Shown here piece after piece: positions 16,041 through 59,627 of a stretch of 64,000 nucleotides of DNA; the stretch's first letter is position 1; the number at the start of each line of letters is the position of its first letter. Both the position numbers and the translations under genes were made by a program. The notes under the pieces were generated by a model. It had not been told where the DNA came from. It searched no databases and saw only the letters and a list, made by a program, of their open reading frames with translations. Source of the DNA: Escherichia phage vB_EcoM_H12; sequence record PP952733.1; one strand, 5' to 3'.

Positions 16041-16238
16041 ATGCCTACAATCCTAGCAATTCTTCTAAAAAATCTAGGTAGCTTCTTCTGGAAACTCATT
16101 TTATCCCTTCTAAGTGAATACATGATTGAGAAAGTGTTCTTTAAGCTTGCAAGATATCTTGCGAGTAAGACAGATACACCTATTGATGATGAGTTCGTAG
16201 ATAACTTAGAAAAAGCTTTTAAGGGGGAGAATAAATGA
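16041..16238 (+). CDS. small membrane protein, possible holin-like
   Basis: 65 aa; N-terminal hydrophobic helix and charged C-terminus; after the fibre genes. Confidence 0.3.
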   Translation: MPTILAILLKNLGSFFWKLILSLLSEYMIEKVFFKLARYLASKTDTPIDDEFVDNLEKAFKGENK

Positions 16239-16606
16239 AGTGGCTAGAGGAAGCTTTTAAAAATAATATTGGTGCAATTGTAGTTGGTATTTTTAGTGTT
16301 ATTGGGATGTATACCACCATGCAAGTTTCGGATGGTAAGCAAGAAGTGTCTGTCACAACAAAGTTACAGCAGCTAGATAATTATAGCAAATCTAATTACT
16401 CAGCTATTCGTGATTTACAGTCTGACATGAGACTGATTCAGCTAGGGATGGAGAACCAGAAAGTTCAGTTAGAGAATGTTAAGGGTGAGAACGCAAAACT
16501 TACTAAAACTCTGGACAAATTCTCTGACAGTGTGAACAATCTGGCTCAATCAGTATCAGCCTTGCAAGCTATTACTGAAAAGAACACAAAGAATACTGAA
16601 AAATAA
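16235..16606 (+). CDS. membrane-anchored coiled-coil protein (XhlA-like)
   Basis: N-terminal TM segment (IGAIVVGIFSVIGMY) then heptad-like Q/L/N-rich region. Confidence 0.3.
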   Translation: MKWLEEAFKNNIGAIVVGIFSVIGMYTTMQVSDGKQEVSVTTKLQQLDNYSKSNYSAIRDLQSDMRLIQLGMENQKVQLENVKGENAKLTKTLDKFSDSVNNLAQSVSALQAITEKNTKNTEK

Positions 16607-20360: not shown

Positions 20361-20384
20361 ATCGAATTTTAATGTAGCTCCGAT

Positions 20385-20470
20385 TAACTACCCGCACTTT
20401 ACCAAACCTCACCCTACCCTACCAGACCTTACCTAACCGCGCCGTACCTCATTAAAAGACCCTCTTAAAG
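20385..20470 (-). repeat. structured intergenic element, partial copy B
   Basis: Same CA-rich (plus) / GT-rich (minus) periodicity as copies A and C; lacks the perfect 10 bp hairpin. Confidence 0.45.
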
Positions 20471-20477
20471 ACCTTTT

Positions 20478-20506
20478 AAAAAGGAGCCTCCGAAGAGGCT
20501 ACCTAG
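20478..20506 (-). terminator. intrinsic terminator after 20512-20952
   Basis: Minus strand GCCTC-TTCG-GAGGC then TCCTTTTT. Confidence 0.55.
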
Positions 20507-20511
20507 TCAAC

Positions 20512-20952: not shown

Positions 20953-20954
20953 AA

Positions 20955-21560
<606 letters not shown>

Positions 21561-21620
21561 TTAGTTGATTGTTAAGTTGTTTGTAAAGAACCCTCAACAG
21601 AAGACTCTTTAGAAACTTGG

Positions 21621-21749
21621 TAGATTTTTAACGTGGCTACTACCATCCACCCAGACTTTACCATACCTCACCAGACCATACCTCACCTGGCCGCGCCTTG
21701 CCTTGCCAAACATCACTTAAAAACCCTTTTAAAAGACTCTTAAGTGATG
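21621..21749 (-). repeat. structured intergenic element copy C
   Basis: Identical CATCACTTAA ... TTAAGTGATG hairpin (21711-21749), GT-rich tract, GGATGGTAGTAGCC box, same orientation as copy A. Confidence 0.6.
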
Positions 21750-21777
21750 CTGGTGAGTACCCGTTGGTTTATGCTGC

Positions 21778-21808
21778 TCAGTATACTCACCAAATTTTCT
21801 ATGTCAAC
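21778..21808 (-). promoter_or_regulatory. sigma70-like promoter upstream of copy C
   Basis: Minus strand TTGACA-N16/17-TATACT; -35 overlaps stop of 21804-21992. Confidence 0.45.
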
Positions 21809-21992
21809 AACTTTCTAATAAAGTTTTATGAAGATTTTGCTTAACAACCCGCCTCACATGTCTGTGCTCTTTCTTAATAAAGAGTGACCTCTTCTTGATA
21901 GAGCGCCTATTCTTGTAAGTGTTGCTAGGGTATTTATCATGAACCGGACAACAACTACCCGGTTTTGCAAACTTGATAATCTCTCTTTTCAC
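21804..21992 (-). CDS. small basic hypothetical protein
   Basis: 62 aa, Lys/Arg-rich; coupled to ligase gene. Confidence 0.3.
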   Translation of the reverse strand: MKREIIKFAKPGSCCPVHDKYPSNTYKNRRSIKKRSLFIKKEHRHVRRVVKQNLHKTLLESC

Positions 21993-23131
21993 TATTCATA
22001 ATCTCGTATAACCAGCCCAACAGGGAACTGTAAAGACCCCTTACGAGTCATCTTCTGGAACTGAACCGTTAAAGGCTTCCCGATAAACTCTTCAGGATGC
22101 TCAGCAAGATACTGTTTCTTCTCATGAGTAGTCTTCCATGAGACATCTACAAAGACGTTAGGAAGAGTCTCTACAACGAACTTGCCATGACCACGTTTAT
22201 CGGTCTTTACACCAGTCACTTTAAACTCTTCAGTGTGCATCTTCTTGTGTTTAATCAAGAAGTATGAACGGTGACAACACTCGTAGAAGGAGTCTTCAGA
22301 GATTGAACGGTACATTGCACCTTCAAACTTAGCTTCAACCCACTTATCATGAGCTTCATCGAACTCTTCCCAAGAATTTACACGACGAGACTTAACAGGG
22401 ACAACTTTACAGCCATCTCTAAAGTCATTCAATGGTGAAGTCTCAATAATATCTCTACGCTCAGGCCACGTCTTAGTACTGTCACAGATATCGTACCAGT
22501 AAAACTTGAGCAAGTGTCTGTCAGGATTGTCTTCATTTTTAATCATAGAGACAATATCTTCTAAGTCCCACCCATGAGCATAAATCTCTCCATCAAATTC
22601 ATCAACATCTTTGTGGAGCCTTAACATTGCCATAATGTCAGGTATTAGTTCAGTAGGGATTTTGTAAACAGTATTTTCACGAGAATATGCTGTGAATACA
22701 CTGCCAATACTTAAGTGCCTTGAAATCCTACAACGGACACCATCAAGTTTCGGTTGAGCATCAGCAGGGAACTTCAGATACTTTGCATGACTAACCTTTG
22801 CAGCATCATGAGCAAGCTGTACACCTACCTTCTCAGTATTCTGTGCAGACTCTTTTGTGTAAGCATAACCTTTGCGGTCAACTTGTTTTTTATACTTAGC
22901 AGCAACTTCAAAGAGAGCTTGCTGTTCAGCGTTACGCTCGTTCTTTTTACCGATGTTTTTAGGTTCTGCTGTATACTCTTCAAACATCATCTTGCCATTT
23001 TCTTTACCGTAGGTTGTAATAACTTTGTCACCTACAGCGACACATGACCAGACGTTAAAAGAGCCATCTTTATTTTGTTTGTATAGAGTTGTCATTTTAT
23101 TCCTCTGAGTGATACCAAGTATTGCAAGCAT
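21992..23131 (-). CDS. ATP-dependent DNA ligase
   Basis: 379 aa; KLDGVRC adenylation motif (KxDG) in N-terminal half. Confidence 0.75.
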   Translation of the reverse strand: MLAILGITQRNKMTTLYKQNKDGSFNVWSCVAVGDKVITTYGKENGKMMFEEYTAEPKNIGKKNERNAEQQALFEVAAKYKKQVDRKGYAYTKESAQNTEKVGVQLAHDAAKVSHAKYLKFPADAQPKLDGVRCRISRHLSIGSVFTAYSRENTVYKIPTELIPDIMAMLRLHKDVDEFDGEIYAHGWDLEDIVSMIKNEDNPDRHLLKFYWYDICDSTKTWPERRDIIETSPLNDFRDGCKVVPVKSRRVNSWEEFDEAHDKWVEAKFEGAMYRSISEDSFYECCHRSYFLIKHKKMHTEEFKVTGVKTDKRGHGKFVVETLPNVFVDVSWKTTHEKKQYLAEHPEEFIGKPLTVQFQKMTRKGSLQFPVGLVIRDYE

Positions 23132-23444: not shown

Positions 23445-23750
23445 TCATTTTCTCTTACCACCAATCTCTACGTCGATAACTTGAACATCACCAGCAACAT
23501 CAAACTTATGGATGATGCTTTCCACAGTGTAAGTCCAACCCTCGATGCGAACCAACTCACCTTCTCGTGGGATGATTGGGTTACGTTGAGCTACGGTTGT
23601 AGTGGAGTGAACAACATCATAACAATAGATATAGTTTACTAGGACTTCCATCGTGAAAACCTCACTCAATAACCGTAGTGTGTGATTGACCATTTTTCCC
23701 ATAACTATAAGATGTTGTTGTTTGAGAGTTTGGACATCTGACAACAACAA
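23445..23750 (-). CDS. hypothetical protein (start uncertain)
   Basis: Overlaps 23662-23919 by ~90 nt; an internal Met is more likely the start. Confidence 0.25.
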   Translation of the reverse strand: MLLSDVQTLKQQHLIVMGKMVNHTLRLLSEVFTMEVLVNYIYCYDVVHSTTTVAQRNPIIPREGELVRIEGWTYTVESIIHKFDVAGDVQVIDVEIGGKRK

Positions 23751-23919
23751 TATCTCTGCTTATGGCATCACCATGTAACTTATAGACTTTGCAATCTTGC
23801 ATCTCTGGTGGGAGGCTATAAGAAGCGTTTTTGTCCTCGTAAGAGGGGTTGCAGCCAGATAGAAAAATTACTCCAAGTGCAACCATTGCTTTCACACAAC
23901 TCTTAACCTTATTGTTCAC
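23662..23919 (-). CDS. putative lipoprotein
   Basis: Signal peptide with lipobox LSGC (MVALGVIFLSGC). Confidence 0.45.
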   Translation of the reverse strand: MNNKVKSCVKAMVALGVIFLSGCNPSYEDKNASYSLPPEMQDCKVYKLHGDAISRDIVVVRCPNSQTTTSYSYGKNGQSHTTVIE

Positions 23920-39957: not shown

Positions 39958-40199
39958 TGACTTATGTGATTTACTCCAAAACTGGATGCCCTCAGTGTGA
40001 GACTGCAAAGAATTTTGCAAAAGCTCGTGGTATTGACCATGTTGTGAGAATGTTAGGGCAGGATTATGAACTGTCAGACCTGATGGATATTGCACAGATG
40101 CCAGTTCGTCAGATGCCATTCATCATGAAAACTGATGGACAAAGCCTAAAGCCTGTTGGGACGCTACAGAATTTTATGGCAGAGGTGAATAATGCTTAA
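39957..40199 (+). CDS. glutaredoxin-like redoxin
   Basis: 80 aa; CPQC active site 10 residues from N-terminus; adjacent to nrdB. Confidence 0.6.
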   Translation: MTYVIYSKTGCPQCETAKNFAKARGIDHVVRMLGQDYELSDLMDIAQMPVRQMPFIMKTDGQSLKPVGTLQNFMAEVNNA

Positions 40200-40398
40200 A
40201 CGCATTTGGGAAGGTTTGGTTGTTGATGCACCAGCTATTGTGATTGGTATGCTGATTGTTAACCTATTTACTGATTTTGAACAAGGTTCATTGTTTGGGG
40301 CCATGTTACTATGGGTTATCTTTGAAATATTAGAGATACAGCTAGGCATCACTGAAAAACTGAGAAAACTCGTTTCTAAGTTTTCTAAAAAGATTTAA
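40192..40398 (+). CDS. small membrane protein
   Basis: 68 aa with two hydrophobic helices. Confidence 0.3.
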   Translation: MLKRIWEGLVVDAPAIVIGMLIVNLFTDFEQGSLFGAMLLWVIFEILEIQLGITEKLRKLVSKFSKKI

Positions 40399-42601: not shown

Positions 42602-42639
42602 GGTGATGTGGGTCTTGATAGGCTTACATCACCTTTTTT
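42602..42639 (+). terminator. probable intrinsic terminator after nrdD
   Basis: GGTGATGT ... ACATCACC stem then TTTTTT. Confidence 0.45.
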
Positions 42640-42745
42640 ATTGGATGTTAGATATGACAGATAGTATTATTGGGTTGTTCATAGGTTCTGTCTTACTAGG
42701 GTTCTTTTTAGGACTCTCTTATTGTGAATTGAGAGATAAGTTAAA

Positions 42746-42946
42746 ATGTTTAAGATATCAAAAGCGTTGATATACATACTCCACATTCTAATCTTCTTCT
42801 TTGGTGTTAGCGTTATGGTATGGGGTTTTTCAGACCCACAATGGAGTTTCTCATATCATGGTCAGATGGATTTATGGCCATGCTTCAAACCATTTTTAGG
42901 ATTAGCTATAGCATTCAGTACATTACCAACTAAGGTGAAATTATGA
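42746..42946 (+). CDS. small membrane protein
   Basis: 66 aa; two hydrophobic segments. Confidence 0.3.
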   Translation: MFKISKALIYILHILIFFFGVSVMVWGFSDPQWSFSYHGQMDLWPCFKPFLGLAIAFSTLPTKVKL

Positions 42947-48527: not shown

Positions 48528-48868
48528 AAATTATGAAAATCAAAGAAATGAACATCAACATTGTCTTAGAAGAACGCTGGGAGAACATCAAGAAGCCTGA
48601 AAATGGTCATAAGTTCCTCAACAAAATCTTAGTAGCAGCTAAAGAAGAACTGACTGGCAAGGTTGCAGCAGCAATCACAATAAAGGTGTGTGTAAAAGGT
48701 CTTCCAGACAATCACCAATTTGCACTTGACGAGTTTAAAGAGAGCTTCTACAATCCAAACAAACAGATGCTTGAAAGTAACTTTGCAGTGTCTACAAGTA
48801 TCGTCCATGACAGAAGCTTTATCCTTTACAAGAATATGAGAGGTGAGTCATGCAAGCATATTGGATAG
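48521..48868 (+). CDS. hypothetical protein
   Basis: 115 aa ORF. Confidence 0.35.
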   Translation: MVKIMKIKEMNINIVLEERWENIKKPENGHKFLNKILVAAKEELTGKVAAAITIKVCVKGLPDNHQFALDEFKESFYNPNKQMLESNFAVSTSIVHDRSFILYKNMRGESCKHIG

Positions 48869-49026
48869 AAATTTTACTGTCACTTGGTAGTGTAGCAGTA
48901 TTTGTTTACCTTCTTTGCAAGTACTATGCAGAGCACAAAAAATGTGACTTCTGTGACGGAGAAGGCTATACAAGAGCAGGTTGTTGCCCTATGTGTGGTG
49001 GTTCTGGTAAAATGTTTAATAAGTAA
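48850..49026 (+). CDS. small membrane-anchored zinc-ribbon protein (58 aa; below track cutoff)
   Basis: ATG at 48850; N-terminal TM helix then CDFCDG ... CCPMCGG. Confidence 0.3.
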   Translation: MQAYWIEILLSLGSVAVFVYLLCKYYAEHKKCDFCDGEGYTRAGCCPMCGGSGKMFNK

Positions 49027-49054: not shown

Positions 49055-51421
49055 ATGCGCATGGTAAATGACCACGCAGAAGTGATTAAGAGTTCAACTT
49101 CTTTGGAGACGTCTCAAGCACAGATTACAATGACACCTGAAATGTTCAGCCTTTTGAGTTCTGGTGTATATACCTTTAAAGAAAGGGCAGTTATCCGTGA
49201 ACTGTCATGTAACGCAGTAGATGCTCAGAAAGAAGCTGGAAAAGAGAACATCCCGTTCCATGTGCATTTACCTACTCGTTTTGAGCCTTACTTTGAAGTT
49301 CGTGATTTTGGAACTGGATTGACTCATGATAAAGTTATGAGTTTGTATCTAAATTACGGGGCTTCTACGAAGAATGACTCTAATGATTACATTGGTGCAA
49401 TGGGTATCGGTTCAAAATCTCCATTTGCAATCGCTCAGTCATTCACAGTATCTAGCTATGTTGATGGTGTTGTTAATAAGTACTCTGTTTACCTTGAGAA
49501 TGGTATCCCTCAAGTAACTAAGCTGACCACCAACCCAACAAAAGAGCCTAATGGTTTAGCTGTACGTGTAGCAGTTGCTGACCATCGTATTTCAAAGTTC
49601 TTTGAAGAAGCTGGTCATGTATACTCATACTTTGCTGTAAAACCAGAAAGTAACATCGAGTATGACGATGTATTAGCAGATATGAATGTCATTGCCCGTG
49701 AAGAAGGTGTTTATGATGCCATGATTCACAAACAAAGCTGGCGTTCTAGTGGTAACAGGACAGAGTTTAATGTAGTGATGGGTAACATTGCCTACCCTGT
49801 TAATATGGAAGCATTACTTGGTGATGATTTCTTCAAAGTATTGCCAGAATTTTTCCGTAGGAGCGTAGACCTTGTAAACATCTACATGCCTATTGGTTCA
49901 GTTGCTATTGCAGCTTCTCGTGAAGCATTGCAGATGAATGACACGACAAAAAATGTTATCATCGAAGCTACTAAAAAGATAACTGAAGCAATTACAAAGG
50001 ATGTTATCAAGAAAGTTAATAGCCAACCTACACTCATGGATGCTGCACAGGCTTATGCTGAGTTGCGTTTGAACTCACGAGAGATGTTTAATGCTGTGTG
50101 TCCAAAGCTAGAGTGGGGAGGCGTTAAGCTTGATTCTCTGGAAGAAGAATTACTAAACATTCGTCGTGGAATTATCTACGCAGAAGATGGCTCAGTCATC
50201 TATGAACGTGATGGTAAAGGTAATATTAAAGTTGATAGGAATGGAAACAACATCCCTAAAGTAGATTATCTTTATAATCCTGTTGCTTATGTTAAGTTCA
50301 ACTCTTTAGAGAGTAAGATTCGTGCAACATCGCTTTCCTACACTCAAGAGGCAAGTATGTTCAATATCTTTGGCGCAATGCGTAAAAGCCAAATTGAACA
50401 GTTTTTGTTTGTTATCAATGACCGTCGCAATAAAAACGGTACTGAGAAAACTGTAGGACGCAACCAGATTCTGCGTGGTGCATGTCGAGACTATGCCAGC
50501 GAGTCAAGTCTGTTTCACAGATACAATGGTATTGTCTTTGTATTCTCTACTGAGAAAGAGCTAGATGATTTAATCAATCTGCACAAACTTGATAAAAGCT
50601 TGTTAAAGATTGTGAAGATGTCTGATAAGGAACATCATTATCAGCGTAAAGAAGCTGTGAGAGGTGTTGTAAAACTCTGGAAAGCTGTTCCAGCAGAAGG
50701 TGTAGCTTCATACAAAGAGGTGTCAGAAGACTTTGATACAATTGAAGAGCCTCAGCTTTACATCAAGGCAGTCGGTGACACAGTTGATGGTGAATGTTTT
50801 TGCTCATCTCCAGAAGATGTAGCTAAGTCAGTTGCTAATGTTACAGGTAAGACAATCTATGTTTTCCGAAAAGCAAATTGGAAAAAGATACCAGAAGACT
50901 GGATTGAAGTAGATGAGAAGCTCTTGAACGACAGCTTAACTGATGTTCACTGGATTAATCACAACAGGTATATGACACGTATCTATATGAATGGTGTCCT
51001 TGACCTTACAAGCAGTTGGATTATTGCCAGAAACTTTACGTTCAATAACAGGAAGATTTCTCGTGGTTATTGCTATTCACGAGACACAAATAAAACTATC
51101 TTCTTAGAAGGCAATGAAGATGCTGTTGAGGCAATGTTTGGTAAAATCCAATACGTTGCTGCACCGTTTGCATACACTTACACCGTTAGTCGGTTGCAAA
51201 CTTTGAAAGAATGCCTTGACAACGATACAAAGCTGTACAAGAAAATTAAGAAAGCTGGTGACCGTATGGTTATTAAGGTGACAAACTATCTTTTAAAAAG
51301 AAAACAAGAAAACTTCTTGCTTTCTCATTTAGATTGGAATAAAGTGTCACCCATCGAAGTGAGTAAGTTCTTAGGCTTTGATGTGAAGTGTGTTCCAGAA
51401 GGGACTACAATTTACGATTAA
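49055..51421 (+). CDS. rIIA: rIIA-like protein (GHKL-type ATPase domain)
   Basis: 788 aa; N-terminal RELSCNAVDAQ ... VRDFGTGL ... GIGSKSPF matches the T4 rIIA N-terminus as recalled; followed by rIIB-sized gene. Confidence 0.75.
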   Translation: MRMVNDHAEVIKSSTSLETSQAQITMTPEMFSLLSSGVYTFKERAVIRELSCNAVDAQKEAGKENIPFHVHLPTRFEPYFEVRDFGTGLTHDKVMSLYLNYGASTKNDSNDYIGAMGIGSKSPFAIAQSFTVSSYVDGVVNKYSVYLENGIPQVTKLTTNPTKEPNGLAVRVAVADHRISKFFEEAGHVYSYFAVKPESNIEYDDVLADMNVIAREEGVYDAMIHKQSWRSSGNRTEFNVVMGNIAYPVNMEALLGDDFFKVLPEFFRRSVDLVNIYMPIGSVAIAASREALQMNDTTKNVIIEATKKITEAITKDVIKKVNSQPTLMDAAQAYAELRLNSREMFNAVCPKLEWGGVKLDSLEEELLNIRRGIIYAEDGSVIYERDGKGNIKVDRNGNNIPKVDYLYNPVAYVKFNSLESKIRATSLSYTQEASMFNIFGAMRKSQIEQFLFVINDRRNKNGTEKTVGRNQILRGACRDYASESSLFHRYNGIVFVFSTEKELDDLINLHKLDKSLLKIVKMSDKEHHYQRKEAVRGVVKLWKAVPAEGVASYKEVSEDFDTIEEPQLYIKAVGDTVDGECFCSSPEDVAKSVANVTGKTIYVFRKANWKKIPEDWIEVDEKLLNDSLTDVHWINHNRYMTRIYMNGVLDLTSSWIIARNFTFNNRKISRGYCYSRDTNKTIFLEGNEDAVEAMFGKIQYVAAPFAYTYTVSRLQTLKECLDNDTKLYKKIKKAGDRMVIKVTNYLLKRKQENFLLSHLDWNKVSPIEVSKFLGFDVKCVPEGTTIYD

Positions 51422-51501: not shown

Positions 51502-52611
51502 ATGACTACTAAAACTAAAGCACAGATTGACGCAGAAATCTACAAACTGGTTAAAGAAGGTAAGCTGACTAAAACAGCTATTGCACAGAAGTTCAATACT
51601 TCAACCCGTTCAGTCGGTCGTGCTGTAGAGCGTCATGAAGCAACCTTAAAAGGTAAGAAAAAGGTAGCTTCTAAACCAGTTAAGAAGACTCTAAAGCAAG
51701 TTGCTAAGTCAGTTAAAAAGAAAGCTGGCAAACCAGTTGAAAAGGTTGTTAAAGAGGCTGTACAGAAAGCTCCAGTAAATAAACTGCATGAAGCTATGCA
51801 GAAAGATGACAAGATTGAGTATATGATTACTGGTGACTCTGTAATTATGACTTACGGTTCAGAGTCTGAAATTGTTGAGTCTACTCATCCGAACTATCAA
51901 GAAATTGTAGTTCATGTTGTGAAAGGTGAGTTCAAGAAAGCATTTGAACTGATGAACATTCGTAAGTCTATCGAAAACTTCACTCAGGGTGCTATCACAA
52001 TCAAAGGTGACAAGTTATTCTACGGTGCTGTTGAGATGCGTTCTACTCTGGTTGACCGTATTCTTCACATGATGAAGACTGGTGATAAAGGCTTTGAACG
52101 ACTTGTAATGTTCTTCGAAAAACTGATGGAAAACCCATCTAAAGACTCTGTAGAACAGCTTTGGGGATTTGTATCTCACCTTGATGTTGAAATTGATGAA
52201 GAAGGCTACATCATTGGTTGGAAGAAAGTCTCTACTCGTGAAGGCAAGTTGGTTGACTCCCACACCTACAAAGTACCTAATGATTTGGGTAACATTGTAG
52301 AAATGCCACGTTGGATGGTTGATAACAACCGTAACGTAACTTGCTCTCAGGGTCTTCATGTTGGTGCTTGGGATTATGTTCGTTGCTTCTCAGGTGATAC
52401 AATCCTGAAGGTTCGTGTCCATCCACGAGATGTTGTATCTGTTCCGACTGATTACAACGATATGAAGATGCGTTCATCCCGTTATGAAGTTGCAGCAATC
52501 GTTGATAATCAACGTAAAGTGTTGAAAGCATGGGACGGTAAGACTGAAGCTTTGCATGTCATCGTTGGCACTGCTGGTGAACTAATCTCCCAACGTAAAC
52601 GTGAAATCTAA
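51502..52611 (+). CDS. rIIB: rIIB-like protein
   Basis: 369 aa; Lys-rich N-terminal region; directly downstream of rIIA-like gene. Confidence 0.5.
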   Translation: MTTKTKAQIDAEIYKLVKEGKLTKTAIAQKFNTSTRSVGRAVERHEATLKGKKKVASKPVKKTLKQVAKSVKKKAGKPVEKVVKEAVQKAPVNKLHEAMQKDDKIEYMITGDSVIMTYGSESEIVESTHPNYQEIVVHVVKGEFKKAFELMNIRKSIENFTQGAITIKGDKLFYGAVEMRSTLVDRILHMMKTGDKGFERLVMFFEKLMENPSKDSVEQLWGFVSHLDVEIDEEGYIIGWKKVSTREGKLVDSHTYKVPNDLGNIVEMPRWMVDNNRNVTCSQGLHVGAWDYVRCFSGDTILKVRVHPRDVVSVPTDYNDMKMRSSRYEVAAIVDNQRKVLKAWDGKTEALHVIVGTAGELISQRKREI

Positions 52612-52627
52612 TAAGTAATTTCTTAAA

Positions 52628-52650
52628 AGGCTGCTTCGGCGGCCTTTTTT
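52628..52650 (+). terminator. intrinsic terminator after rIIB
   Basis: GGCTGC-TTCG-GCGGCC then TTTTTT. Confidence 0.6.
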
Positions 52651-52711
52651 ATTTGTATTTTGTGCAGAGTGCTGTATAATTGTGGTCACGATAAACTAAA
52701 CAGGAGAACCA

Positions 52712-53260
52712 ATGAAGAAGTTGATTCTAGGTTTGTGCTTAATGTTTACAGCACACTTATCTTATGCAGTTGACTGCCCAGAGCTATCAATTAGCCAAAA
52801 AGTAAACATGTTAAAAGCTTACCAGTATGGTGAGAATAATATGGGTAAAGGTTGGGGTATCACTCTAGCTGCTATAGCCTTACAAGAGTCAGAGTTAGGT
52901 CTGAATGTAGAGAATAAAAAGACACATGACTATGGTATTTTCCAGAATCACTTGAAGACTGTTGTAAAGCGTAACAAAATTAGTCCTAATGTGGCTAAAA
53001 AGAAACTCTTAAAAGATTTTGACTATGCCGCAAAAGAAACACACAAAGAGCTTGAGTTTTGGACGAAGGTACATGGTCAACCAAAGTCAAAGAAGACTTT
53101 ACAAAAAGTTTTAGCGTCATATAATGCTGGGTATTCGTACAAAATCCCTAAAGCTAAGAAATACTCTCAAGATGTCTACAACAATATGAAAGTTATTGCT
53201 CAATGTGAATTTGCAACAAACATTTCTAAGGTAAACCATGAAAAAATTAAGAAAGTCTGA
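52712..53260 (+). CDS. secreted lytic transglycosylase (candidate endolysin)
   Basis: Sec-type signal peptide (cleavage near SYA/VD); AIALQESELG resembles the catalytic Glu-Ser motif of SLT-type transglycosylases. Confidence 0.6.
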   Translation: MKKLILGLCLMFTAHLSYAVDCPELSISQKVNMLKAYQYGENNMGKGWGITLAAIALQESELGLNVENKKTHDYGIFQNHLKTVVKRNKISPNVAKKKLLKDFDYAAKETHKELEFWTKVHGQPKSKKTLQKVLASYNAGYSYKIPKAKKYSQDVYNNMKVIAQCEFATNISKVNHEKIKKV

Positions 53261-53933
53261 TGAAGTACTGTGTCATGCTTATGACTTACATCCTCATGAG
53301 TTAGGTCTTGATTCCTGTGTATGGACCCCAGAACAGTGCAGAGATTTTGAAGATACTGCAAGAGAAGTTGTATGTTCACTTGAAGAGTTCCACACATCAG
53401 AACCAATTGTGAACGTTGTGGACAAAGGGACTGGACAATCTATAGGTGTAAGACGTGACAGTTTAGTCATAGTCAATAAAGACCTTGTAGAAAAAGGCAA
53501 CCTTATCTTAGCAGACATTGATGGTGTTCTTACAAATTTTAATCACGAAGATTGCTCAACAGAATTGATTGATGGGTCATTTTCACAGTACACTAATTTG
53601 CTTGACTCTGTAAGAGCAAAACCAACGTATGTTTTCAATATTATTGATGCAATTGCTAACCATGCTGCCATTGGACTCTTGACAGCGAGGGGTGAATCTC
53701 AGAGAATACCTACTGAGATGTTTTTAAGGCATTACATAGAGCATGATTACATGCTTTTCATGCGTGGTTTTGGAACTAACTCTATAAGTGCAGAAAGTTT
53801 AAAAGTTAGGATGATTCAGTCTTGCATTCTTCCTTACTTTAATATAGTATGCTTTATAGAAGATACAGAGAAGAATGTTCAGAAGGTAAACAGAATCCTT
53901 CCACACATTAAAACCATGTTAGTTAAACATTGA
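53238..53933 (+). CDS. HAD-superfamily hydrolase-like protein
   Basis: LILADIDGVLTN matches HAD motif I (DxDGx). Confidence 0.4.
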   Translation: MKKLRKSDEVLCHAYDLHPHELGLDSCVWTPEQCRDFEDTAREVVCSLEEFHTSEPIVNVVDKGTGQSIGVRRDSLVIVNKDLVEKGNLILADIDGVLTNFNHEDCSTELIDGSFSQYTNLLDSVRAKPTYVFNIIDAIANHAAIGLLTARGESQRIPTEMFLRHYIEHDYMLFMRGFGTNSISAESLKVRMIQSCILPYFNIVCFIEDTEKNVQKVNRILPHIKTMLVKH

Positions 53934-54409
53934 GAGAAAAACTTATGAACAATATCATTACGGTAGCACTGGACGATACGGCAAACAAATCTGAAGTAGT
54001 TCGTAAAATGATTCAAGGTAACTTTGAAGGTAAAATTTTCCGTGCTGTTAATGTAAAAGCTGATGGCAGCATTCGTGAATATCGTGCATTGTTGAATGTT
54101 AAAAAGCACGTAAAAGGTGCTGGTTCAACGACTGCACACAAAGAAAACCTGATGACTATCTACGATATGGGTAAGGCTTCAGAGTTAGGTGCTGAAGGTA
54201 TCGTTAAAGAAGGTGCTCCGTATCGCTCTTTCAATCTGGAAACTACTCTTATGCTTTCCTTTACAAGTGGTTCTAAAACAATCACTTATCTCTTTACTGA
54301 TGCTGCAACGGTATCTGCTATTAAGGATAGCACTGTCAAAGCTGGCGTAGTTGCTGCTGCAAAAGCTTCTTCGATGGCTGCAAATATCCTTGCTAAAGTC
54401 CTCGGTTAA
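53930..54409 (+). CDS. hypothetical protein
   Basis: 159 aa; followed by strong terminator. Confidence 0.35.
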   Translation: MREKLMNNIITVALDDTANKSEVVRKMIQGNFEGKIFRAVNVKADGSIREYRALLNVKKHVKGAGSTTAHKENLMTIYDMGKASELGAEGIVKEGAPYRSFNLETTLMLSFTSGSKTITYLFTDAATVSAIKDSTVKAGVVAAAKASSMAANILAKVLG

Positions 54410-54421
54410 GGTTAAGATACA

Positions 54422-54443
54422 GGCTCCTTCGGGAGCCTTTTTC
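54422..54443 (+). terminator. intrinsic terminator
   Basis: GGCTCC-TTCG-GGAGCC then TTTTT. Confidence 0.65.
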
Positions 54444-54461
54444 ATTTCAGGAGATTGTTAA

Positions 54462-54809
54462 ATGACATTTAAAGAGTTCTGCCAAGCTACTTTCATAATT
54501 GTTTTCTTAGTTGGAGCAGGTGTCTGGGGAGGATACTCTTACAGAGACTACCAAGTTGCTGAAGCTGAGCTAAATAATGAGAGACTAATAAGTGTTGCCA
54601 AAGATGCTTATCAGGAAGGTTTAGCCACACTCAGCGCCAATTACAAAAATGATTTGAAAGATGTGCTTGCTAAGAATAAGCACACAAAAGAGGTACTAAC
54701 GTATGAAAAGACTAAGCCAGAGTTTTATAATGTTTGTGTTACTGATAATTATGTCAGGGTGTTCAACGAACAAAGTGAACAGTACATTCAAAAACTCCCA
54801 AGTAAGTGA
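54462..54809 (+). CDS. inner-membrane spanin (Rz-like)
   Basis: N-terminal TM helix (FIIVFLVGAGVWGGYSY), coiled-coil periplasmic domain; Rz1-like ORF embedded. Confidence 0.5.
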   Translation: MTFKEFCQATFIIVFLVGAGVWGGYSYRDYQVAEAELNNERLISVAKDAYQEGLATLSANYKNDLKDVLAKNKHTKEVLTYEKTKPEFYNVCVTDNYVRVFNEQSEQYIQKLPSK

Positions 54810-54972
54810 GAGTGACAAGTACACTCAAGAAGAGTCAAGATTCACTATCAAAGGTAATACTGGTAGTGATGTGGCAGCAGCCCTTGAGTTTTATCGTGAT
54901 GGTTTTTACCAGTGCACAATCAAAGCTAATAACCTTATTGATATGATTTTATTAGGAAACAAACAGCAATGA
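54703..54972 (+). CDS. outer-membrane lipoprotein spanin (Rz1-like)
   Basis: Lipoprotein signal with lipobox IMSGC; starts inside the Rz-like gene in another frame. Confidence 0.5.
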   Translation: MKRLSQSFIMFVLLIIMSGCSTNKVNSTFKNSQVSESDKYTQEESRFTIKGNTGSDVAAALEFYRDGFYQCTIKANNLIDMILLGNKQQ

Positions 54973-55238
54973 CAGAGAATGAAGACACTTTCTATGTAGA
55001 AGGTTACTTACTGCTACCACGACCAAAAGAAACTTATATGCGGGTTGATTTCTCACCAACCATTATGGATAACGTGATGTGTCATATCTTTATGCAAGGT
55101 GTCACAGCACAGCTTAAGCATGTTGGTAAAGAGTGCAAAATAAAGGTTGACACTCATCCAGAAATCAAAGAGAATCACTACACATGGTTCTTACCAGACT
55201 ATAAAGAAATCTTAGCAGTTCTTAAAACGAGGAAATGA
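54969..55238 (+). CDS. hypothetical protein
   Basis: 89 aa, coupled. Confidence 0.3.
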   Translation: MTENEDTFYVEGYLLLPRPKETYMRVDFSPTIMDNVMCHIFMQGVTAQLKHVGKECKIKVDTHPEIKENHYTWFLPDYKEILAVLKTRK

Positions 55239-55549
55239 TTATGCAATTCCAGCCAACAAATCGTGGATTTTCTTATGCAGAATTTAAAGATGCTAAAGGG
55301 GAAATTTGTACTTTACAAGAGAGTTCATCATATGAACCATGTATCTGGTTAGGTGCTAAAGAGGTCTCTGTTCAGTACCTAGATGGTGGCTGGAAAACAC
55401 TTGATATCCCAGCATTAGTAGGCAAAGATTTTGTAGGTAACCAAAGAATGAAACTCAACCAAGAACAGGTGAAAGAGTTATTACCATACCTTCAGTACTT
55501 TGCTGAAAATGGTGAATTACCAACAGAGGAACTTACAAATGCAGATTAA
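55235..55549 (+). CDS. hypothetical protein
   Basis: 104 aa, coupled. Confidence 0.3.
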   Translation: MIMQFQPTNRGFSYAEFKDAKGEICTLQESSSYEPCIWLGAKEVSVQYLDGGWKTLDIPALVGKDFVGNQRMKLNQEQVKELLPYLQYFAENGELPTEELTNAD

Positions 55550-55865
55550 TGGAAGAGACTTTGTAGCCGTTTACTACGAGAACGATAAAGAAGTTGGCGT
55601 AGCACAAGTATCTTATGGTAATGGTAAGTGGTTGTATGGGACAGTCGCAGTAGTCGGAACAAGAAGTGATACAAAAACTTTTAAAGATTGTGTTGACCTT
55701 CTTGAAGAATCCATACACAATCATTGGTGTCTGATATGGATGACTGACAACGAAGTGATAGAACGCTTCAAAAAGATTGGTATCAACATAGACAGCATTG
55801 AGCATGTTGACTTGTATGAACTGACTGAGAAGGTAAATTATGAGAGTAATTCTAGCCAGAGATAA
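55539..55865 (+). CDS. hypothetical protein
   Basis: Track ORF begins at TTG 55500; ATG at 55539 with GAGG 10 nt upstream is the likelier start. Confidence 0.3.
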   Translation: MQINGRDFVAVYYENDKEVGVAQVSYGNGKWLYGTVAVVGTRSDTKTFKDCVDLLEESIHNHWCLIWMTDNEVIERFKKIGINIDSIEHVDLYELTEKVNYESNSSQR

Positions 55866-56067
55866 AAAGACACGGAAAATTATCCGGTCAGCAGTATTCA
55901 TTGGAAGAAATAAAGTGATTCCATTTACAGCAAACGATGTGATAGCCTACAGGGAAAAATTAGCATTTAGTTATTGCTTGCGTGGCTTCATCTCACAACC
56001 ATTGGAAGACTTCAAAAGTCGTTGTGGTAAAGGCATCATCATTCAAGAGGCAATTATCAATGGCTGA
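55840..56067 (+). CDS. hypothetical protein
   Basis: 75 aa; stop overlaps next start (ATGGCTGA). Confidence 0.3.
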   Translation: MRVILARDKKTRKIIRSAVFIGRNKVIPFTANDVIAYREKLAFSYCLRGFISQPLEDFKSRCGKGIIIQEAIING

Positions 56068-56260: not shown

Positions 56261-57046
56261 ATGGGTATTGTAAAAATCATCAATGGGGATATCTTCTCAG
56301 CATTTGATAAAGGTAAGTTTGATGTTATTGGTCACGGTTGCAACTGTATGAATTTAATGGGTGCAGGTATCGCTGACAAGATTTCTAAACTTTATCCAAA
56401 AGCATATGAGACCGATACAGAAGTTTATCTGTATGCAGGTGGAATAGGCCACAAACCTTGTGAAAATTTACTAGGGAATTTCTCTGTAGCACGTTTAGAA
56501 CAAGGCCGTATAGCTAACCTTTACACTCAGCTTAAGACTGGTAAAGATGCCCGATACAGTGCTTTAGAGTCATCTTTGAAACAACTTAACAGATACTGTG
56601 AAGTCAATCAGTTGAAGAAAGTTGGGTTACCTATGATTGGTGCAGGTATCGGTGGACTAGACCCTCAAGCCGTCGCAGTTATCATTAATCAGGTGATGAA
56701 GAGTGTAGATGTGTATCTGTATGTCTACGAAGGCGAGATGTACCACAAGTTACGCTCAGGTTGGAAGAACTACTGTGAACCAGAATACTTTGCAGGTGTA
56801 GTAATGTTCACAGATGATACAGTTACCCTCTTCAGACGAAGAAAAGGTAAGATACATCAAAGTAACCCTCCGGTTGAGAAGATGTCTCTAAGTAACGCTC
56901 TAGTTACCCACCTGTCGAAGAGCAATCACAGAATTGCAGTAACATTTGGCAGTGATGCAGACGCTTACATCTATGCAAGAACTGATGAGGATATTGATAC
57001 AGTTTTCTCTTCACCGGAAGTAACCTTCTTAGACGCAAAGAACTAA
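56261..57046 (+). CDS. macro-domain protein (ADP-ribose binding / processing)
   Basis: N-terminal GDI ... DVIGHGCNCMNLMGAGIADKI and later VGLPMIGAGIGGLDPQAV align with macro-domain motifs (compare E. coli YmdB, as recalled). Confidence 0.7.
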   Translation: MGIVKIINGDIFSAFDKGKFDVIGHGCNCMNLMGAGIADKISKLYPKAYETDTEVYLYAGGIGHKPCENLLGNFSVARLEQGRIANLYTQLKTGKDARYSALESSLKQLNRYCEVNQLKKVGLPMIGAGIGGLDPQAVAVIINQVMKSVDVYLYVYEGEMYHKLRSGWKNYCEPEYFAGVVMFTDDTVTLFRRRKGKIHQSNPPVEKMSLSNALVTHLSKSNHRIAVTFGSDADAYIYARTDEDIDTVFSSPEVTFLDAKN

Positions 57047-57109
57047 GAAACTCTGTAGAATATTCACAATAGACTAAGCCTTTCTTATCTGGTAAATTTT
57101 TCAGGTAAG

Positions 57110-57302
57110 GAGGGCTTTTTCATTTTAGGATTGTGCAGGTAGAGTTCTGTATAGAAATCTGTAGAGAAAATTTTGAACTCCAAAGAGAAAATTCATTTTC
57201 AAACTGTGCAGGTAATCTCCAAAGAGCTTTTTCATTTTCAAAACGTGCAGACCCCGCTCAGGTCGGGCAAGAAAAATCATTTTAGAATTGTGCAGGTAGG
57301 TG
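57110..57302. repeat. degenerate direct repeats (4 copies) in ~500 bp non-coding region
   Basis: Four copies of (A/T)TCATTTT(A/C)(A/G)(A/G)A(A/C/T)(T/C)GTGCAG(G/A)(T/C), two preceded by CTCCAAAGAG. Confidence 0.55.
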
Positions 57303-57555: not shown

Positions 57556-57936
57556 ATGGCATATCGTGCACCTAAATTCATCAACAAAGACAACTTTCGC
57601 AACACACTGGAGAAGTCACTTGATGAAAATTTTAAAGGTAACATTATCGTTGTTCACGCATTCAATTTTAAGTATGATGTAAACGGGAATAGAATCAACC
57701 ATTACACGGCAACCATGTTAGATGGTACGCTATCAAGTGAAAAAGCTGTACTGAATGCACTTGCTGGACGCGGTAAAAACCTGATAAAATGTGATAAGAG
57801 ACGTTATCAGGGTGGCGCATATGGTTATGATGATGCTGTTTACCATCTTGAAAATATGGGCTATTCAGTAGAGAAAGCTGGAGCGTCTCAAATAATCGGT
57901 AGTGATGGTTATGTGACAATTTTCAAAATTAACTGA
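57556..57936 (+). CDS. small-gene array: hypothetical protein
   Basis: 126 aa; conserved leader CTAGGAGATTCAAAAATG. Confidence 0.45.
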   Translation: MAYRAPKFINKDNFRNTLEKSLDENFKGNIIVVHAFNFKYDVNGNRINHYTATMLDGTLSSEKAVLNALAGRGKNLIKCDKRRYQGGAYGYDDAVYHLENMGYSVEKAGASQIIGSDGYVTIFKIN

Positions 57937-57940
57937 TAAA

Positions 57941-58024
57941 GTACTTTACAAGGGGCTTATAGTTCGATAAAGTAAGCCCCAGATAAAGAGCTTTATCACT
58001 CAATCCTAAATTGGAGATTCTAAG
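57941..58024 (+). repeat. type-1 intergenic element (hairpin + conserved box + leader)
   Basis: ACTTTACA, hairpin GGGGCTTA/TAAGCCCC (57952-57980), AGATAAAGAGCTTTATCAC box. Confidence 0.55.
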
Positions 58025-58318
58025 ATGGCTATTATCAAAAACGTTGTAATTACTGCAAAAACTCGTGATGATGCTCGCGTTATGGCTAAAAAGTTATGCG
58101 GGAAAGTGATTGACAACGGAAAACAATCTGCTGTAAGATGGGGCGTGAAGACTGATAAACAGTTGAAGCTAAAAAATTCACCAATAAACCTTTTTACATG
58201 TGTAAACACTATCGGGAAGACAAATGTATACACGAAAAAGGCATATATCAGACGCGTAGCCATGACATCACCTATTCGCACAATGAGAAGTCATGCAAAG
58301 CTGAAAATTAATCGTTAA
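58025..58318 (+). CDS. small-gene array: basic hypothetical protein
   Basis: 97 aa; conserved leader. Confidence 0.45.
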   Translation: MAIIKNVVITAKTRDDARVMAKKLCGKVIDNGKQSAVRWGVKTDKQLKLKNSPINLFTCVNTIGKTNVYTKKAYIRRVAMTSPIRTMRSHAKLKINR

Positions 58319-58320
58319 AG

Positions 58321-58404
58321 TACTTTACAGGGGCTTGAAAGCTGATATCTTAAACCCCAGATAAAGAGCTTTACCACTCAATCCTTAAACTAGGAGATTC
58401 AAAA
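58321..58404 (+). repeat. type-1 intergenic element
   Basis: ACTTTACA, imperfect hairpin with AAGCTGATA loop, AGATAAAGAGCTTTACCAC box. Confidence 0.5.
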
Positions 58405-59004: not shown

Positions 59005-59301
59005 ATGAAATTATCAAATAAAGTCCGTGAAAATCTAAGCAAGTTACTCAACAAAATTGATTTTATCGAGACATCAAGGAATAGTCATGATGTTATGGAA
59101 TGGTTACACGGAAAAATCAAAGGCCGTCGTGTAGTGATTTGCTTATGGAATAGTTGCAGGGAATATAAAAAACCTGTATTACAAGTCAATATCTATGATG
59201 ATACTTTTAAAAGCCCTGTAAAGTCTAAAAGTGATTTATTAGAATCCTATGAGATAACTGTAAATGGCAAAGTATCACGTAAAGAGGAAACACCATGTTA
59301 A
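59005..59301 (+). CDS. small-gene array: hypothetical protein
   Basis: 98 aa; conserved leader. Confidence 0.45.
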   Translation: MKLSNKVRENLSKLLNKIDFIETSRNSHDVMEWLHGKIKGRRVVICLWNSCREYKKPVLQVNIYDDTFKSPVKSKSDLLESYEITVNGKVSRKEETPC

Positions 59302-59627
59302 TGACTGGTATCACTGCAATCATTGCCATTTTCGCGCTATATAAGGCATATAAAGCCTATAATCTAGCAAATAAGGCAATCACACAGCAGGTTAGCAATA
59401 GCCTTGTAGAAAGCTTTCTAGGGCGTCTCAGTGATGAGCAAATAAAGCGGTTAGAAATGAGCTTCAGATTCAAAGCGAAAACCTATCAGATAAGTGACAT
59501 CTTCAAGGATGATTTTCAGCTTGTCGATGATTATAACTCTCTGATAAATGCTTTAAATATCAGTGATTTAAAAGATTATCATGCTGTAATAGTTCAAGAA
59601 TTGAGCAAACGAAAAAATTCCTCTTGA
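59295..59627 (+). CDS. small-gene array: membrane-anchored hypothetical protein
   Basis: 110 aa; N-terminal TM helix; coupled to upstream gene. Confidence 0.4.
   Translation: MLMTGITAIIAIFALYKAYKAYNLANKAITQQVSNSLVESFLGRLSDEQIKRLEMSFRFKAKTYQISDIFKDDFQLVDDYNSLINALNISDLKDYHAVIVQELSKRKNSS

Follow-up and report, generated by a model that had tools for sequence, protein, structure and literature searches.

A probable exported transglycosylase and an overlapped spanin pair very probably lie in separate transcription units of a Felix O1-like Escherichia phage

INTRODUCTION

The lysis genes of Felix O1-like phages have been described as "scattered around the genome" (PMC4319497, PMC6486253, PMC3185647), and muralytic activity has been shown for a recombinant enzyme with 99% identity to the Felix O1 lysin (PMC9156722). 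In T4, e mutants trap virions within dead cells (PMC7650644). T4 also encodes Vs.1, a hypothetical 20.7-kDa protein whose gene lies between vs and regB. A marginal SLT match for vs.1 was already noted in 2006, when it was treated as a conserved ORF (PMC1524935). That comparative paper was the only one to mention vs.1 in our literature search, which found no experiment on the Vs.1 family.

Here we analyze a 64,000-nucleotide stretch of Escherichia phage vB_EcoM_H12 (PP952733.1), referred to below as the window. A sequence-only reading had described positions 52712-54972 as a lysis cassette, with a Sec-secreted transglycosylase and overlapping spanins and no adjacent holin. All of the ORFs that it named are present where it placed them.

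RESULTS

Two transcription units in the 52712-54972 interval

The window belongs to Felixounavirus. It shares 96-97% nucleotide identity with many Felixounavirus genomes, and the JN01 genome is colinear with it. We are confident that this is a Felix O1-like myophage and that the 52712-54972 interval lies within its early/middle region. The order and sizes of Felix O1 ORF1 to ORF7 (rIIA, rIIB, ORF3, ORF4, ORF5, the Rz-like ORF6, and ORF7) match those of the window, and the interval is structurally alike in the two phages, with only a few percent nucleotide divergence. An Rfam search of the whole window gave zero matches, which places the tRNA cluster of these phages beyond its limits. The interval and its surroundings contain the following features.

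49055..51421, plus strand: rIIA homolog (788-aa ORF; syntenic rIIA annotation in skuden, EcoM2, JN01, and Felix O1)
51502..52611, plus strand: rIIB homolog (369-aa ORF; annotated rIIB in relatives)
52625..52648, plus strand: intrinsic terminator after rIIB (Felix O1 "t2"; 10-bp stem with 5 G-C pairs, TTCG loop, T-run)
52712..53260, plus strand: predicted exported GH23/SLT-type muramidase, probable lytic transglycosylase (182 aa; phrog_600, E = 5.7e-58)
53238..53933, plus strand: HAD-type phosphatase, annotated "polynucleotide kinase" (phrog_3970, E = 2.8e-134)
53945..54409, plus strand: conserved protein (phrog_2267, E = 3.8e-50)
54421..54438, plus strand: intrinsic terminator (Felix O1 "t5"; AGGCTCCTTCGGGAGCCT then TTTTTCATTTC)
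54462..54809, plus strand: i-spanin, Rz-like (115 aa; phrog_1152 "Rz-like spanin," E = 2.1e-41; i-spanin in relatives)
54703..54972, plus strand: o-spanin, Rz1-like lipoprotein precursor (89 aa; phrog_4180, E = 1.4e-50)
57076..57117, plus strand: intrinsic terminator (Felix O1 "t13"; 17-bp stem and T-run), closing the unit opened by the spanins

Terminators t2, t5, and t13 have been published for Felix O1, t2 and t5 with the same sequences as here and t5 at -14.9 kcal/mol (PMC3185647). The terminator at 54421-54438 is strong and separates the spanin genes from the transglycosylase unit. One terminator-bounded unit would therefore run from 52712 to 54409 and encode the Sec-exported GH23/SLT enzyme, the HAD phosphatase, and the conserved protein. 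A second would start from 54462, with the overlapped two-component spanin pair coming first.

This arrangement does not support a lysis cassette, whose genes would be adjacent and cotranscribed. The genes at 53238-53933 and 53945-54409 and the terminator at 54421-54438 split the transglycosylase from the spanins. The principal endolysin, a gp35-type lysozyme, would lie outside the window, and there is no holin in the interval. As both the endolysin proper and the likely holin appear to be located elsewhere, we conclude that 52712-54972 very probably represents two separate transcription units and no lysis cassette. Erwinia Kolesnikvirus keeps all three genes of the first unit as a triad (transglycosylase, phosphatase, and conserved gene), with three further genes before the spanins.

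The first 23 nt of the phosphatase gene also belong to the 3' end of the transglycosylase gene. The phosphatase has a DIDGV motif that aligns with DVDGT of the T4 PseT phosphatase domain, and it contains no recognizable kinase P-loop. Homologs of the next product, the conserved protein, occur in 298 records, all of them Felix O1-like, Kolesnikvirus, or related (Ounavirinae-like phages only), and its ATG at 53945 is the start used in the annotation of relatives. We considered this 154-aa protein as a hidden lysis factor. It lacks a TMD, a weak match to WYL_2 falls far under the cutoff, and we found nothing for or against such a role. An antisense ORF annotated in JN01 (54185-54445, minus strand) overlaps both the conserved plus-strand gene and the terminator, and we deem it spurious.

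The 52712-53260 product as a predicted exported GH23 enzyme

An AGGAG ribosome-binding site lies 7 nt upstream of the 52712 start. The signal peptide had been called cleavable looking, and a simple-rule check agreed: amino acids 1 to 19 (52712-52768) comprise an MKK n-region and a 13-residue h-region (LILGLCLMFTAHL), with a predicted cleavage site at SYA↓VD. Cleavage was judged by these simple rules rather than by a trained predictor. A SAR domain is not indicated by a heuristic that considers the 13-residue h-region and the S-Y-A↓V that follows it. A lipoprotein reading (LGLC, residues 6 to 9) was also rejected, because Leu at -1 is unfit for a lipobox and there are only 5 residues before the Cys.

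The phrog_600 match spans residues 1 to 170, and the SLT motifs QES, YGIFQ, and SYNAG are present (E59-S60, G75-I-F-Q78, and Y137-N-A-G140). With the Pfam SLT model (PF01464), the window protein scores just under the cutoff (18.6 bits versus 21.3; E = 0.0015), and E is ≤0.01 for each of the 13 aligned family members (best, 8.2e-12). Every one of the 169 aligned family sequences has the catalytic Glu59 and also Tyr137, and Ser60, Gly75, Asn138, and Gly140 are nearly invariant. An N-terminal hydrophobic segment or signal peptide occurs in 146 of the 158 full-length family representatives, and in the window protein and T4 Vs.1 too. A Cys near position 22 is found together with one near position 165 in 70 of the 169 sequences (chance expectation, ~37).

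An AF2 model of the protein (pLDDT, 83.8) has the GH23 (goose-lysozyme/SLT) fold. Foldseek returned g-type lysozymes, MltE, Slt, MltF, and MltD with a probability of 1.0 (best E, 3e-3; TM, ~0.5), and phage SLT proteins were structural matches at E = 4e-8. The weak structural matches included PRD1 P7 and tape-measure SLT domains. A family-profile search of PDB sequences found no solved relative, only spurious PRP4-kinase matches and a weak match to goose lysozyme (E = 0.13). For the seven proteins tested against NCBIfam, nothing came near any cutoff.

These features suggest that the 52712-53260 product is a probable transglycosylase; GH23 also includes hydrolytic g-type lysozymes. In all likelihood it is an active, exported enzyme, as its residues predict. 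Its signal peptide would be cut after Ala19, and the protein would then fold in the periplasm, with a probable Cys22-Cys165 disulfide. There it would cleave glycan strands with Glu59 as the single catalytic acid/base, reaching the wall without a holin.

The protein is the ortholog of Felix O1 ORF3 (98.4% identical), which the Felix O1 record labels "protein in vs-regB intergenic region," and it is homologous to T4 Vs.1 (32% identity; BLASTP E = 3e-17). We counted 2,135 phage records with a homolog of the transglycosylase, Straboviridae and Ackermannviridae among them. The Vs.1-family gene is placed with early or DNA-metabolism genes in T4 and Ackermannviridae.

The spanin genes form an overlapped pair

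The i-spanin has an N-terminal TMD by hydropathy (amino acids 6 to 24), a periplasmic helical domain, and one periplasmic Cys (C92). Its homolog in the Erwinia phage retains the C-terminal Cys motif. The o-spanin has the signal sequence MKRLSQSFIMFVLLIIMSG↓CST, with the lipobox MSG↓C at Cys20 and a Ser at +2, which allows outer membrane sorting; it also matches phrog_456, "Rz-like spanin" (E = 4.2e-5). The Erwinia phage o-spanin homolog has the lipobox TAS↓C and a conserved C terminus with a Cys. Judged by TMD and lipobox, 54462-54972 encodes a genuine two-component spanin pair. By inference from relatives, the pair would disrupt the outer membrane as the last step of lysis.

The sequence-only reading had recognized this pair but called it embedded. 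The o-spanin ORF, in the +1 frame, shares its first 107 nt with the i-spanin gene and extends 163 nt past the i-spanin stop at 54809, so the architecture is overlapped. The two genes are likewise arranged in Felix O1 and the Erwinia phage. Some records start the o-spanin at 54751, which loses the signal peptide; JN01 and Felix O1 have the long form.

The likely holin is distant

A membrane-ORF scan of small ORFs found no holin near these genes, as the sequence-only reading had stated: within 52612-55238, the only membrane segments were the transglycosylase signal peptide, the i-spanin, and the o-spanin. That reading had also offered two distant genes as the only holin-like candidates.

16041..16238, plus strand: 65-aa protein between the tail fiber gene and the putative holin (phrog_402, E = 1.5e-22)
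16235..16606, plus strand: putative holin of the Felix O1 gp79 type (123 aa; one TMD)

They are not the only ones, since the window has further small membrane ORFs at 40192-40398 (2 TMDs and a charged C terminus), 42603-42770, 42746-42946, 48850-49026, and 59295-59627. The sequence-only reading had further suggested that lysis timing may depend on an unrecognized holin/antiholin, possibly this pair. The holin does appear to be distant, but the 123-aa protein is already a "putative holin" in curated relatives: many relatives, the CPT-curated Michonne gp057 among them, label its homolog "holin" or "putative holin."

The 16235-16606 product has a TMD at amino acids 11 to 29 and a coiled-coil-like C-terminal domain, and its gene is the last in the tail fiber operon. 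It had no Pfam, PHROG, or NCBIfam holin match and did not resemble the T4-type T holin of phage Phi1 in sequence, and a literature search found no experimental report on holin function for this type. The 65-aa protein has a weakly hydrophobic, amphipathic N terminus and is 47% identical (E = 2e-16) to ORF252 of the T4-type phage Phi1, which is located between gene 37 and the holin gene t. The order of tail fiber, c65 family, and single-TMD protein is common to Phi1/RB49 (37, ORF252, t); in T4 it is 37, 38, t. In Felix O1, ORF79 was reported to be maximal at 5 min by RT-PCR, which is odd for a holin. From topology and synteny, the 123-aa single-TMD protein is most likely the holin, and by extension from relatives it would be part of the lysis set.

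The endolysin is probably encoded beyond the window

The Felix O1 gp35-type lysozyme (154 aa; Phage_lysozyme PF00959, 138.8 bits) is found at ≥80% identity in 251 records. In JN01 coordinates its gene maps ~6 kb beyond the window's right end, and a tblastn search for it across the window gave no match. We infer from relatives that the window's own genome has a gp35-type endolysin and that this soluble cytoplasmic lysozyme, ~6 kb past the window, would be the one to act in lysis. With its gene beyond the right end, the endolysin could not be seen in the sequence-only reading. Our search for "LysO1" literature returned only unrelated papers.

Dispersed lysis genes are already known in the Felix O1 group and are ordinary there. 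Gene order, terminators, spanins, separate endolysin, and scattering have all been published previously for Felix O1 and relatives.

DISCUSSION

What the exported enzyme might do

It is highly likely that the transglycosylase is an accessory peptidoglycan-remodeling enzyme and not the lysis endolysin, because it would reach the wall without a holin and because T4, which has vs.1, cannot lyse without gene e. An accessory role is our default. The sequence-only reading had treated the enzyme as the endolysin, which is at odds with its homology to T4 vs.1, its placement in its own terminator-bounded unit, and the separate gp35-type lysozyme of relatives. For an endolysin, export could be by Sec, as in Oenococcus phage fOg44, or of the SAR type, with a distant, unrecognized holin or pinholin setting the timing; such timing would come through collapse of the membrane potential. 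The export signal and intact muralytic active site are compatible with this, the gene is within 1.2 kb of the spanin genes, and some records say "putative lysin" or "Lysin." Felix O1 ORF3 also peaks in the RT-PCR class of the lysin and i-spanin. However, the canonical soluble lysozyme is conserved across all relatives and active in vitro, T4 possesses vs.1 yet requires gene e, a terminator and nonlysis genes intervene before the spanins, a 13-residue h-region followed by a (-3,-1) cleavage site is unlike SAR domains, and the family is among the early genes in T4 and Ackermannviridae. We consider an endolysin role very unlikely. Expression timing fails to separate the transglycosylase from the lysis genes, since ORF3, ORF6 (i-spanin), and ORF35 (lysin) all fall into the "middle, 25 min" class by RT-PCR in Felix O1. 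A role in entry as part of the virion, in the manner of T7 gp16 or PRD1 P7, is scarcely credible. SLT-domain proteins are frequent in phage virions, and PRD1 P7 and tape-measure SLT domains were among the weak structural matches, but a cleavable signal peptide directs the protein to the periplasm, away from cytoplasmic assembly, and the gene is outside the structural module. The sequence-only reading had itself named a virion-associated enzyme with a canonical endolysin and holin elsewhere as the contrary case. The endolysin does appear to be elsewhere, but neither the Felix O1 nor the VpaE1 virion proteome contains the ORF3-type enzyme (PMC3185647, PMC4690856).

Among more specific accessory roles, the enzyme may be an auxiliary lysis factor that nicks or shortens glycan strands in the periplasm, so that the sacculus fails faster after lysozyme release. 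Alternatively, it might keep lysis possible when walls are highly cross-linked or belong to stationary-phase cells. Favoring such a factor are the strong purifying selection seen at the active site across ~266 clusters (50% identity), the predicted periplasmic location throughout the family, and retention beside the gp35-type lysozyme (Felixounavirus and Erwinia Kolesnikvirus) and gene e (T4). Against this, no phenotype has been reported for vs.1, a conserved ORF (PMC1524935), and the sequence offers no means of restraining activity before lysis, so we hold this idea only tentatively. Phage-phage or phage-host conflict in the periplasm, through superinfection exclusion or a wall altered against incoming tail lysozymes, seems improbable. 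It would suit an exported protein whose gene is outside the late morphogenesis operon ("middle, 25 min" for Felix O1 ORF3) and beside rIIA/rIIB in Ounavirinae. In T4, Spackle offers a precedent, being a protein that is made early, acts in the periplasm, and targets peptidoglycan enzymes (PMC7677548, PMC7650644). However, the intact catalytic centre points to peptidoglycan cleavage over inhibition, and the argument is purely analogical.

An accessory role also has a broader form. The Vs.1 family is predicted to be exported with its catalytic residues intact, and it is present in two classic model phages, which is the point of wider interest. Vs.1-family enzymes could be conserved, holin-independent periplasmic peptidoglycan cutters that condition the sacculus in large virulent myophages, although we think this rather unlikely. 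The myophages concerned would be T4-like, Vi1-like, and Felix O1-like. Conditioning could prime rapid collapse, allow cell enlargement in prolonged infections, or open the mesh for complexes that span the envelope, such as spanins. If this were true, a fourth enzymatic component of lysis would have been overlooked in these model phages. A practical correction for Felix O1-like genomes is to withhold the endolysin label from a secreted SLT gene near spanins.

Comparison with known systems

The T4 lysis system (e, t, pseT.3/pseT.2, rI, and rIIA/B) resembles that of the window in several ways. The soluble lysozyme is far from the holin, the gene in the holin position closes the tail fiber operon, rIIA and rIIB are present, and the spanin genes are near a PseT-like phosphatase gene. 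However, the spanin genes are separated in T4 and overlapped in the window, and the spanins and holins of the two lack sequence similarity (PseT.3 and PseT.2 had none to the window spanins). T4 also has rI, and no rI homolog was identified in the window.

T4 Vs.1 and the window protein are alike in size (181 versus 182 aa), in their N-terminal signal peptide, and in the QES, YG-FQN, and SYN-G motifs. T4 Vs.1 differs in having no cysteines, whereas the window protein has the Cys22/Cys165 pair. The neighbors also differ, being regB and vs in T4 but rIIB and the HAD phosphatase in the window. Like E. coli MltE and Slt70, the window protein has a GH23/SLT domain with a catalytic Glu-Ser, and MltE, Slt, and MltF were among its structural matches. 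P19 of plasmid R1, IpgF, EtgA, and VirB1 are presumably similar, each with a single GH23/SLT domain of ~150 to 190 aa and a Sec signal. The Vs.1 family differs from these small periplasmic family-1 transglycosylases in being phage encoded and unlinked to a secretion apparatus.

As in lambda Rz/Rz1 and P2 LysB/LysC, the window spanins combine a type II inner membrane protein with a small outer membrane lipoprotein, encoded in different frames of the same DNA. Lambda Rz1 is wholly embedded, whereas the window o-spanin is overlapped, and the P2 spanin genes are overlapped. Compared with the lambda and P2 proteins, the mature window o-spanin is longer (69 aa) and without proline, and the one periplasmic Cys of each window spanin subunit lies close to the C terminus.

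Predicted exported transglycosylase

The sequence-only reading took 52712-54972 to be a lysis cassette in which a secreted transglycosylase is the endolysin. The three ORFs that it described there (52712-53260, 54462-54809, and 54703-54972) are present, and their sequence features are real; the interpretation as a lysis cassette fails. The region contains the following features:

52625-52648, terminator after rIIB, corresponding to published Felix O1 t2
52712-53260, transglycosylase gene, 182 aa, preceded at 7 nt by an AGGAG ribosome-binding site
between transglycosylase and spanins, HAD-type phosphatase, 231 aa, annotated 'polynucleotide kinase', phrog_3970
between transglycosylase and spanins, 154-aa protein, phrog_2267
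54421-54438, strong intrinsic terminator between transglycosylase and spanins, corresponding to published Felix O1 t5
54462-54809, i-spanin, 115 aa, one N-terminal TMD, PHROG 1152 'Rz-like spanin' (E, 2e-41)
54703-54972, o-spanin, +1 frame, 89-aa lipoprotein precursor, MKRLSQSFIMFVLLIIMSG/CST with Ser at +2

The cleavable-looking signal peptide reported for the transglycosylase was borne out: after an MKK n-region come 13 residues of hydrophobic core (LILGLCLMFTAHL) and then an S-Y-A/V-D site, giving Val20 as the predicted mature N terminus. The protein also has the SLT-type motifs E-S, G-x-F-Q, and Y-N-A-G. Alone, it scored 18.6 bits on Pfam SLT, just under the 21.3-bit cutoff, and all 13 of its 13 aligned relatives matched SLT (best E, 8.2e-12). 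With Felix O1 ORF3 it shares 98.4% identity, and the GenBank note on that ORF ('hypothetical 20.7 kD protein in vs-regB intergenic region') means T4 Vs.1. Aligned directly, the protein and T4 Vs.1 are 32% identical across 174 residues (E, 3e-17), and all motifs and both signal peptides line up.

Homologs were found by tblastn in 2,135 phage records, including T4-like Straboviridae, Ackermannviridae, and Vibrio and Aeromonas phages. An exhaustive HMMER search yielded 266 family clusters at 50% identity, nearly all of them single-domain proteins of 160 to 220 aa. Among 169 aligned sequences, Glu59 and Tyr137 never varied, and Ser60, Gly63, Gly75, Asn138, and Gly140 were almost invariant. Of 158 full-length representatives, 146 have a hydrophobic stretch at the N terminus, accompanied in most cases by a basic n-region and a (-3,-1) site. 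In 70 sequences, a cysteine near position 22 is found together with one near 165, whereas the separate frequencies of the two predict about 37; the excess suggests a Cys22-Cys165 disulfide, which would fit a periplasmic location. An AlphaFold model (pLDDT 83.8) was confident apart from residues 1-19 and the C-terminal tail, and it matched g-type lysozymes, MltE, Slt, MltF, and MltD, as well as small phage SLT proteins. No relative of solved structure was detectable by sequence. Together, the family homology, conserved active site, signal peptides, predicted disulfide, and fold lead us to predict that this is an exported, catalytically intact GH23 enzyme, either a lytic transglycosylase or a hydrolase.

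A separate endolysin in relatives

In the related Escherichia phage JN01, 30228-30692 encodes an annotated 154-aa 'lysin' that scored 138.8 bits against Pfam Phage_lysozyme and lacks a hydrophobic N terminus. This Felix O1 gp35-type lysozyme is present in 251 records at at least 80% identity, and a recombinant enzyme sharing 99% identity with the Felix O1 lysin lowers E. coli turbidity (PMC9156722). JN01 coordinates place the locus about 5.8 to 6.3 kb past the right end of the window, where the gene is predicted on the minus strand beside tail genes, and tblastn of the JN01 lysozyme against the window gave no match. Therefore, the gene was invisible to the sequence-only reading.

T4 has vs.1, and virions of T4 e mutants stay trapped inside dead cells (PMC7650644). 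Because this happens despite vs.1, a Vs.1-type enzyme is insufficient for lysis in T4. Genomic context bears on this too: T4 carries the gene between regB and vs, and Matapan, a phage of the Ackermannviridae, has it after gp46/47-type exonuclease genes. The separate conserved lysozyme, T4 genetics, and genomic context argue strongly against the transglycosylase being the endolysin. The earlier reading had considered that the enzyme might instead be virion associated, with a canonical endolysin elsewhere. Such an endolysin does exist, in the relatives. Virion association did not hold up: the transglycosylase is absent from the virion proteomes of Felix O1 and VpaE1, and this, with its signal peptide, rules it out as a virion protein. 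Our best estimate is that the Vs.1-type enzyme has an accessory, holin-independent role in peptidoglycan remodelling. A contribution to lysis as an auxiliary factor is a live alternative, and so is a function in periplasmic conflict. The residual interest lies in the role of this widespread, exported family of phage muramidases.

Spanins and intervening genes

The TMD, the PHROG 1152 match, and the lipobox confirmed an Rz-like protein paired with an Rz1-like lipoprotein. Their genes had been described as embedded and are actually overlapped; the o-spanin ORF starts 107 nt ahead of the i-spanin stop and ends 163 nt past it. Felix O1 and an Erwinia Kolesnikvirus share this arrangement. Nor do the transglycosylase and spanins make up one cassette, as the phosphatase gene, the phrog_2267 gene, and the 54421-54438 terminator intervene. 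The Erwinia Kolesnikvirus keeps its transglycosylase, phosphatase, and phrog_2267-type genes together as an intact triad, and three further genes come between this triad and the spanins.

Several records deposited for Felixounavirus (skuden, EcoM2) start the o-spanin at an internal ATG, Met17 (54751), rather than at 54703, and so lose the lipoprotein signal peptide, whereas JN01 and Felix O1 have the long form with a proper lipobox. The i-spanin (NVCVTDN, C92) and the mature o-spanin (YQCTIK, C71) each have a single periplasmic cysteine near the C terminus, both conserved in Erwinia phage homologs (L010 8221-8716), and the mature o-spanin has no proline. These sequences hint at a heterotypic i-spanin/o-spanin disulfide, not lambda-type homodimer links.

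Downstream, 56261-57046 (+) encodes a 261-aa protein annotated 'phosphatase', and the Felix O1 record relates its counterpart by homology to the T4 tk-vs intergenic protein (Tk.4, macro/A1pp domain). With the Vs.1 homolog, this Tk.4-type gene makes two remnants of the T4 regB-vs.1-vs-tk.4 neighbourhood within one 5-kb stretch.

Holin candidates

The sequence-only reading recognized holin-like candidates only at 16041-16606. A hydropathy scan of all coding-strand ORFs added five small membrane ORFs:

40192-40398 (+), 68 aa, two predicted TMDs and a lysine-rich charged C terminus (KLRKLVSKFSKKI), phrog_4532
42603-42770, small membrane ORF
42746-42946, small membrane ORF
48850-49026 (+), 58 aa, just upstream of rIIA, N-terminal TMD and a CxxCxGxG-type zinc-finger motif
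59295-59627, small membrane ORF

Two TMDs with a lysine-rich C terminus are the classic shape of a class II holin, and 40192-40398 is a candidate alternative to the 123-aa product of 16235-16606. By position, the additional ORFs appear to be gp116, gp118, gp119, and gp131, the other Felix O1 holin candidates of Whichard et al. (PMC3185647), with 48850-49026 appearing to be gp131. One relative labels the counterpart of the latter 'heat shock protein'.

The 123-aa protein has a single TMD, and its gene closes the tail fibre operon. Its counterpart is labelled 'holin' or 'putative holin' in many relatives, the curated Michonne genome among them. Directly upstream, 16041-16238 encodes a 65-aa protein that shares 47% identity with ORF252 of T4-type phage Phi1, whose gene is flanked by tail fibre gene 37 and holin t; the T4 order is 37, 38, t. 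The 123-aa protein has no sequence similarity to T and no holin family match, and its Felix O1 counterpart, ORF79, was reported to be maximal at 5 min. Given these points, and with synteny as the one line of support, we grade it a probable holin. Literature searches found no published experiment on it.

Other features of the window

JN01 is colinear with the whole window (from JN01 48422 to the end of that record, then continuing to 24392). About 1.7 kb (20296-21993) had no megablast match in JN01 and is probably a variable insertion. Several homing endonucleases are present in Felix O1-like phages. Rfam gave no matches at gathering thresholds across the window, which therefore has no tRNA genes; the 20 to 26 reported in such phages must be, like the lysozyme gene, beyond its right end.

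A direct repeat of 28 to 34 nt (consensus, about AGAG-TTTTCATTTT-AA-TGTGCAG) occurs in four copies, spaced by 39 to 73 nt, at 57111-57295, in a noncoding gap of about 0.8 kb after terminator t13. The copies could act as iterons or as a set of regulatory sites. At 57925-58010 and 58304-58388 there are further repeated units, each about 85 nt long (segments 87% and 80% identical), with a TTTACA-like hexamer and a hairpin (GGGGCTT...AAGCCCC). A small gene follows each unit, and the units resemble duplicated promoter or 5'-leader modules. An 85-aa ORF at 23662-23919 (-) has a clear lipoprotein signal (MNNKVKSCVKAMVALGVIFLSG/C) and a phrog_902 match, and its product could be a superinfection-exclusion or receptor-blocking lipoprotein.

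Comparison with known lysis systems

The interval 52000-56000 matched 276 phage records, and in 238 of them the match spans 80% of it or more. Identity reaches 96 to 97% in the best matches, and nearly all are Felixounavirus phages of Escherichia, Salmonella, and Shigella; therefore the finding sits in a well-sampled, published phage group. A holin-lysin cassette is absent in Felix O1 (PMC3185647), and annotation of phage Meda found an endolysin and spanins and no holin (PMC6486253). The scattered layout is ordinary for the Felix O1-like group and already documented. It also resembles that of T4: the predicted endolysin is a soluble lysozyme encoded far from the probable holin, the spanin genes are near a PseT-like phosphatase gene, rIIA and rIIB are both present, and a single-TMD membrane protein ends the tail fibre operon.
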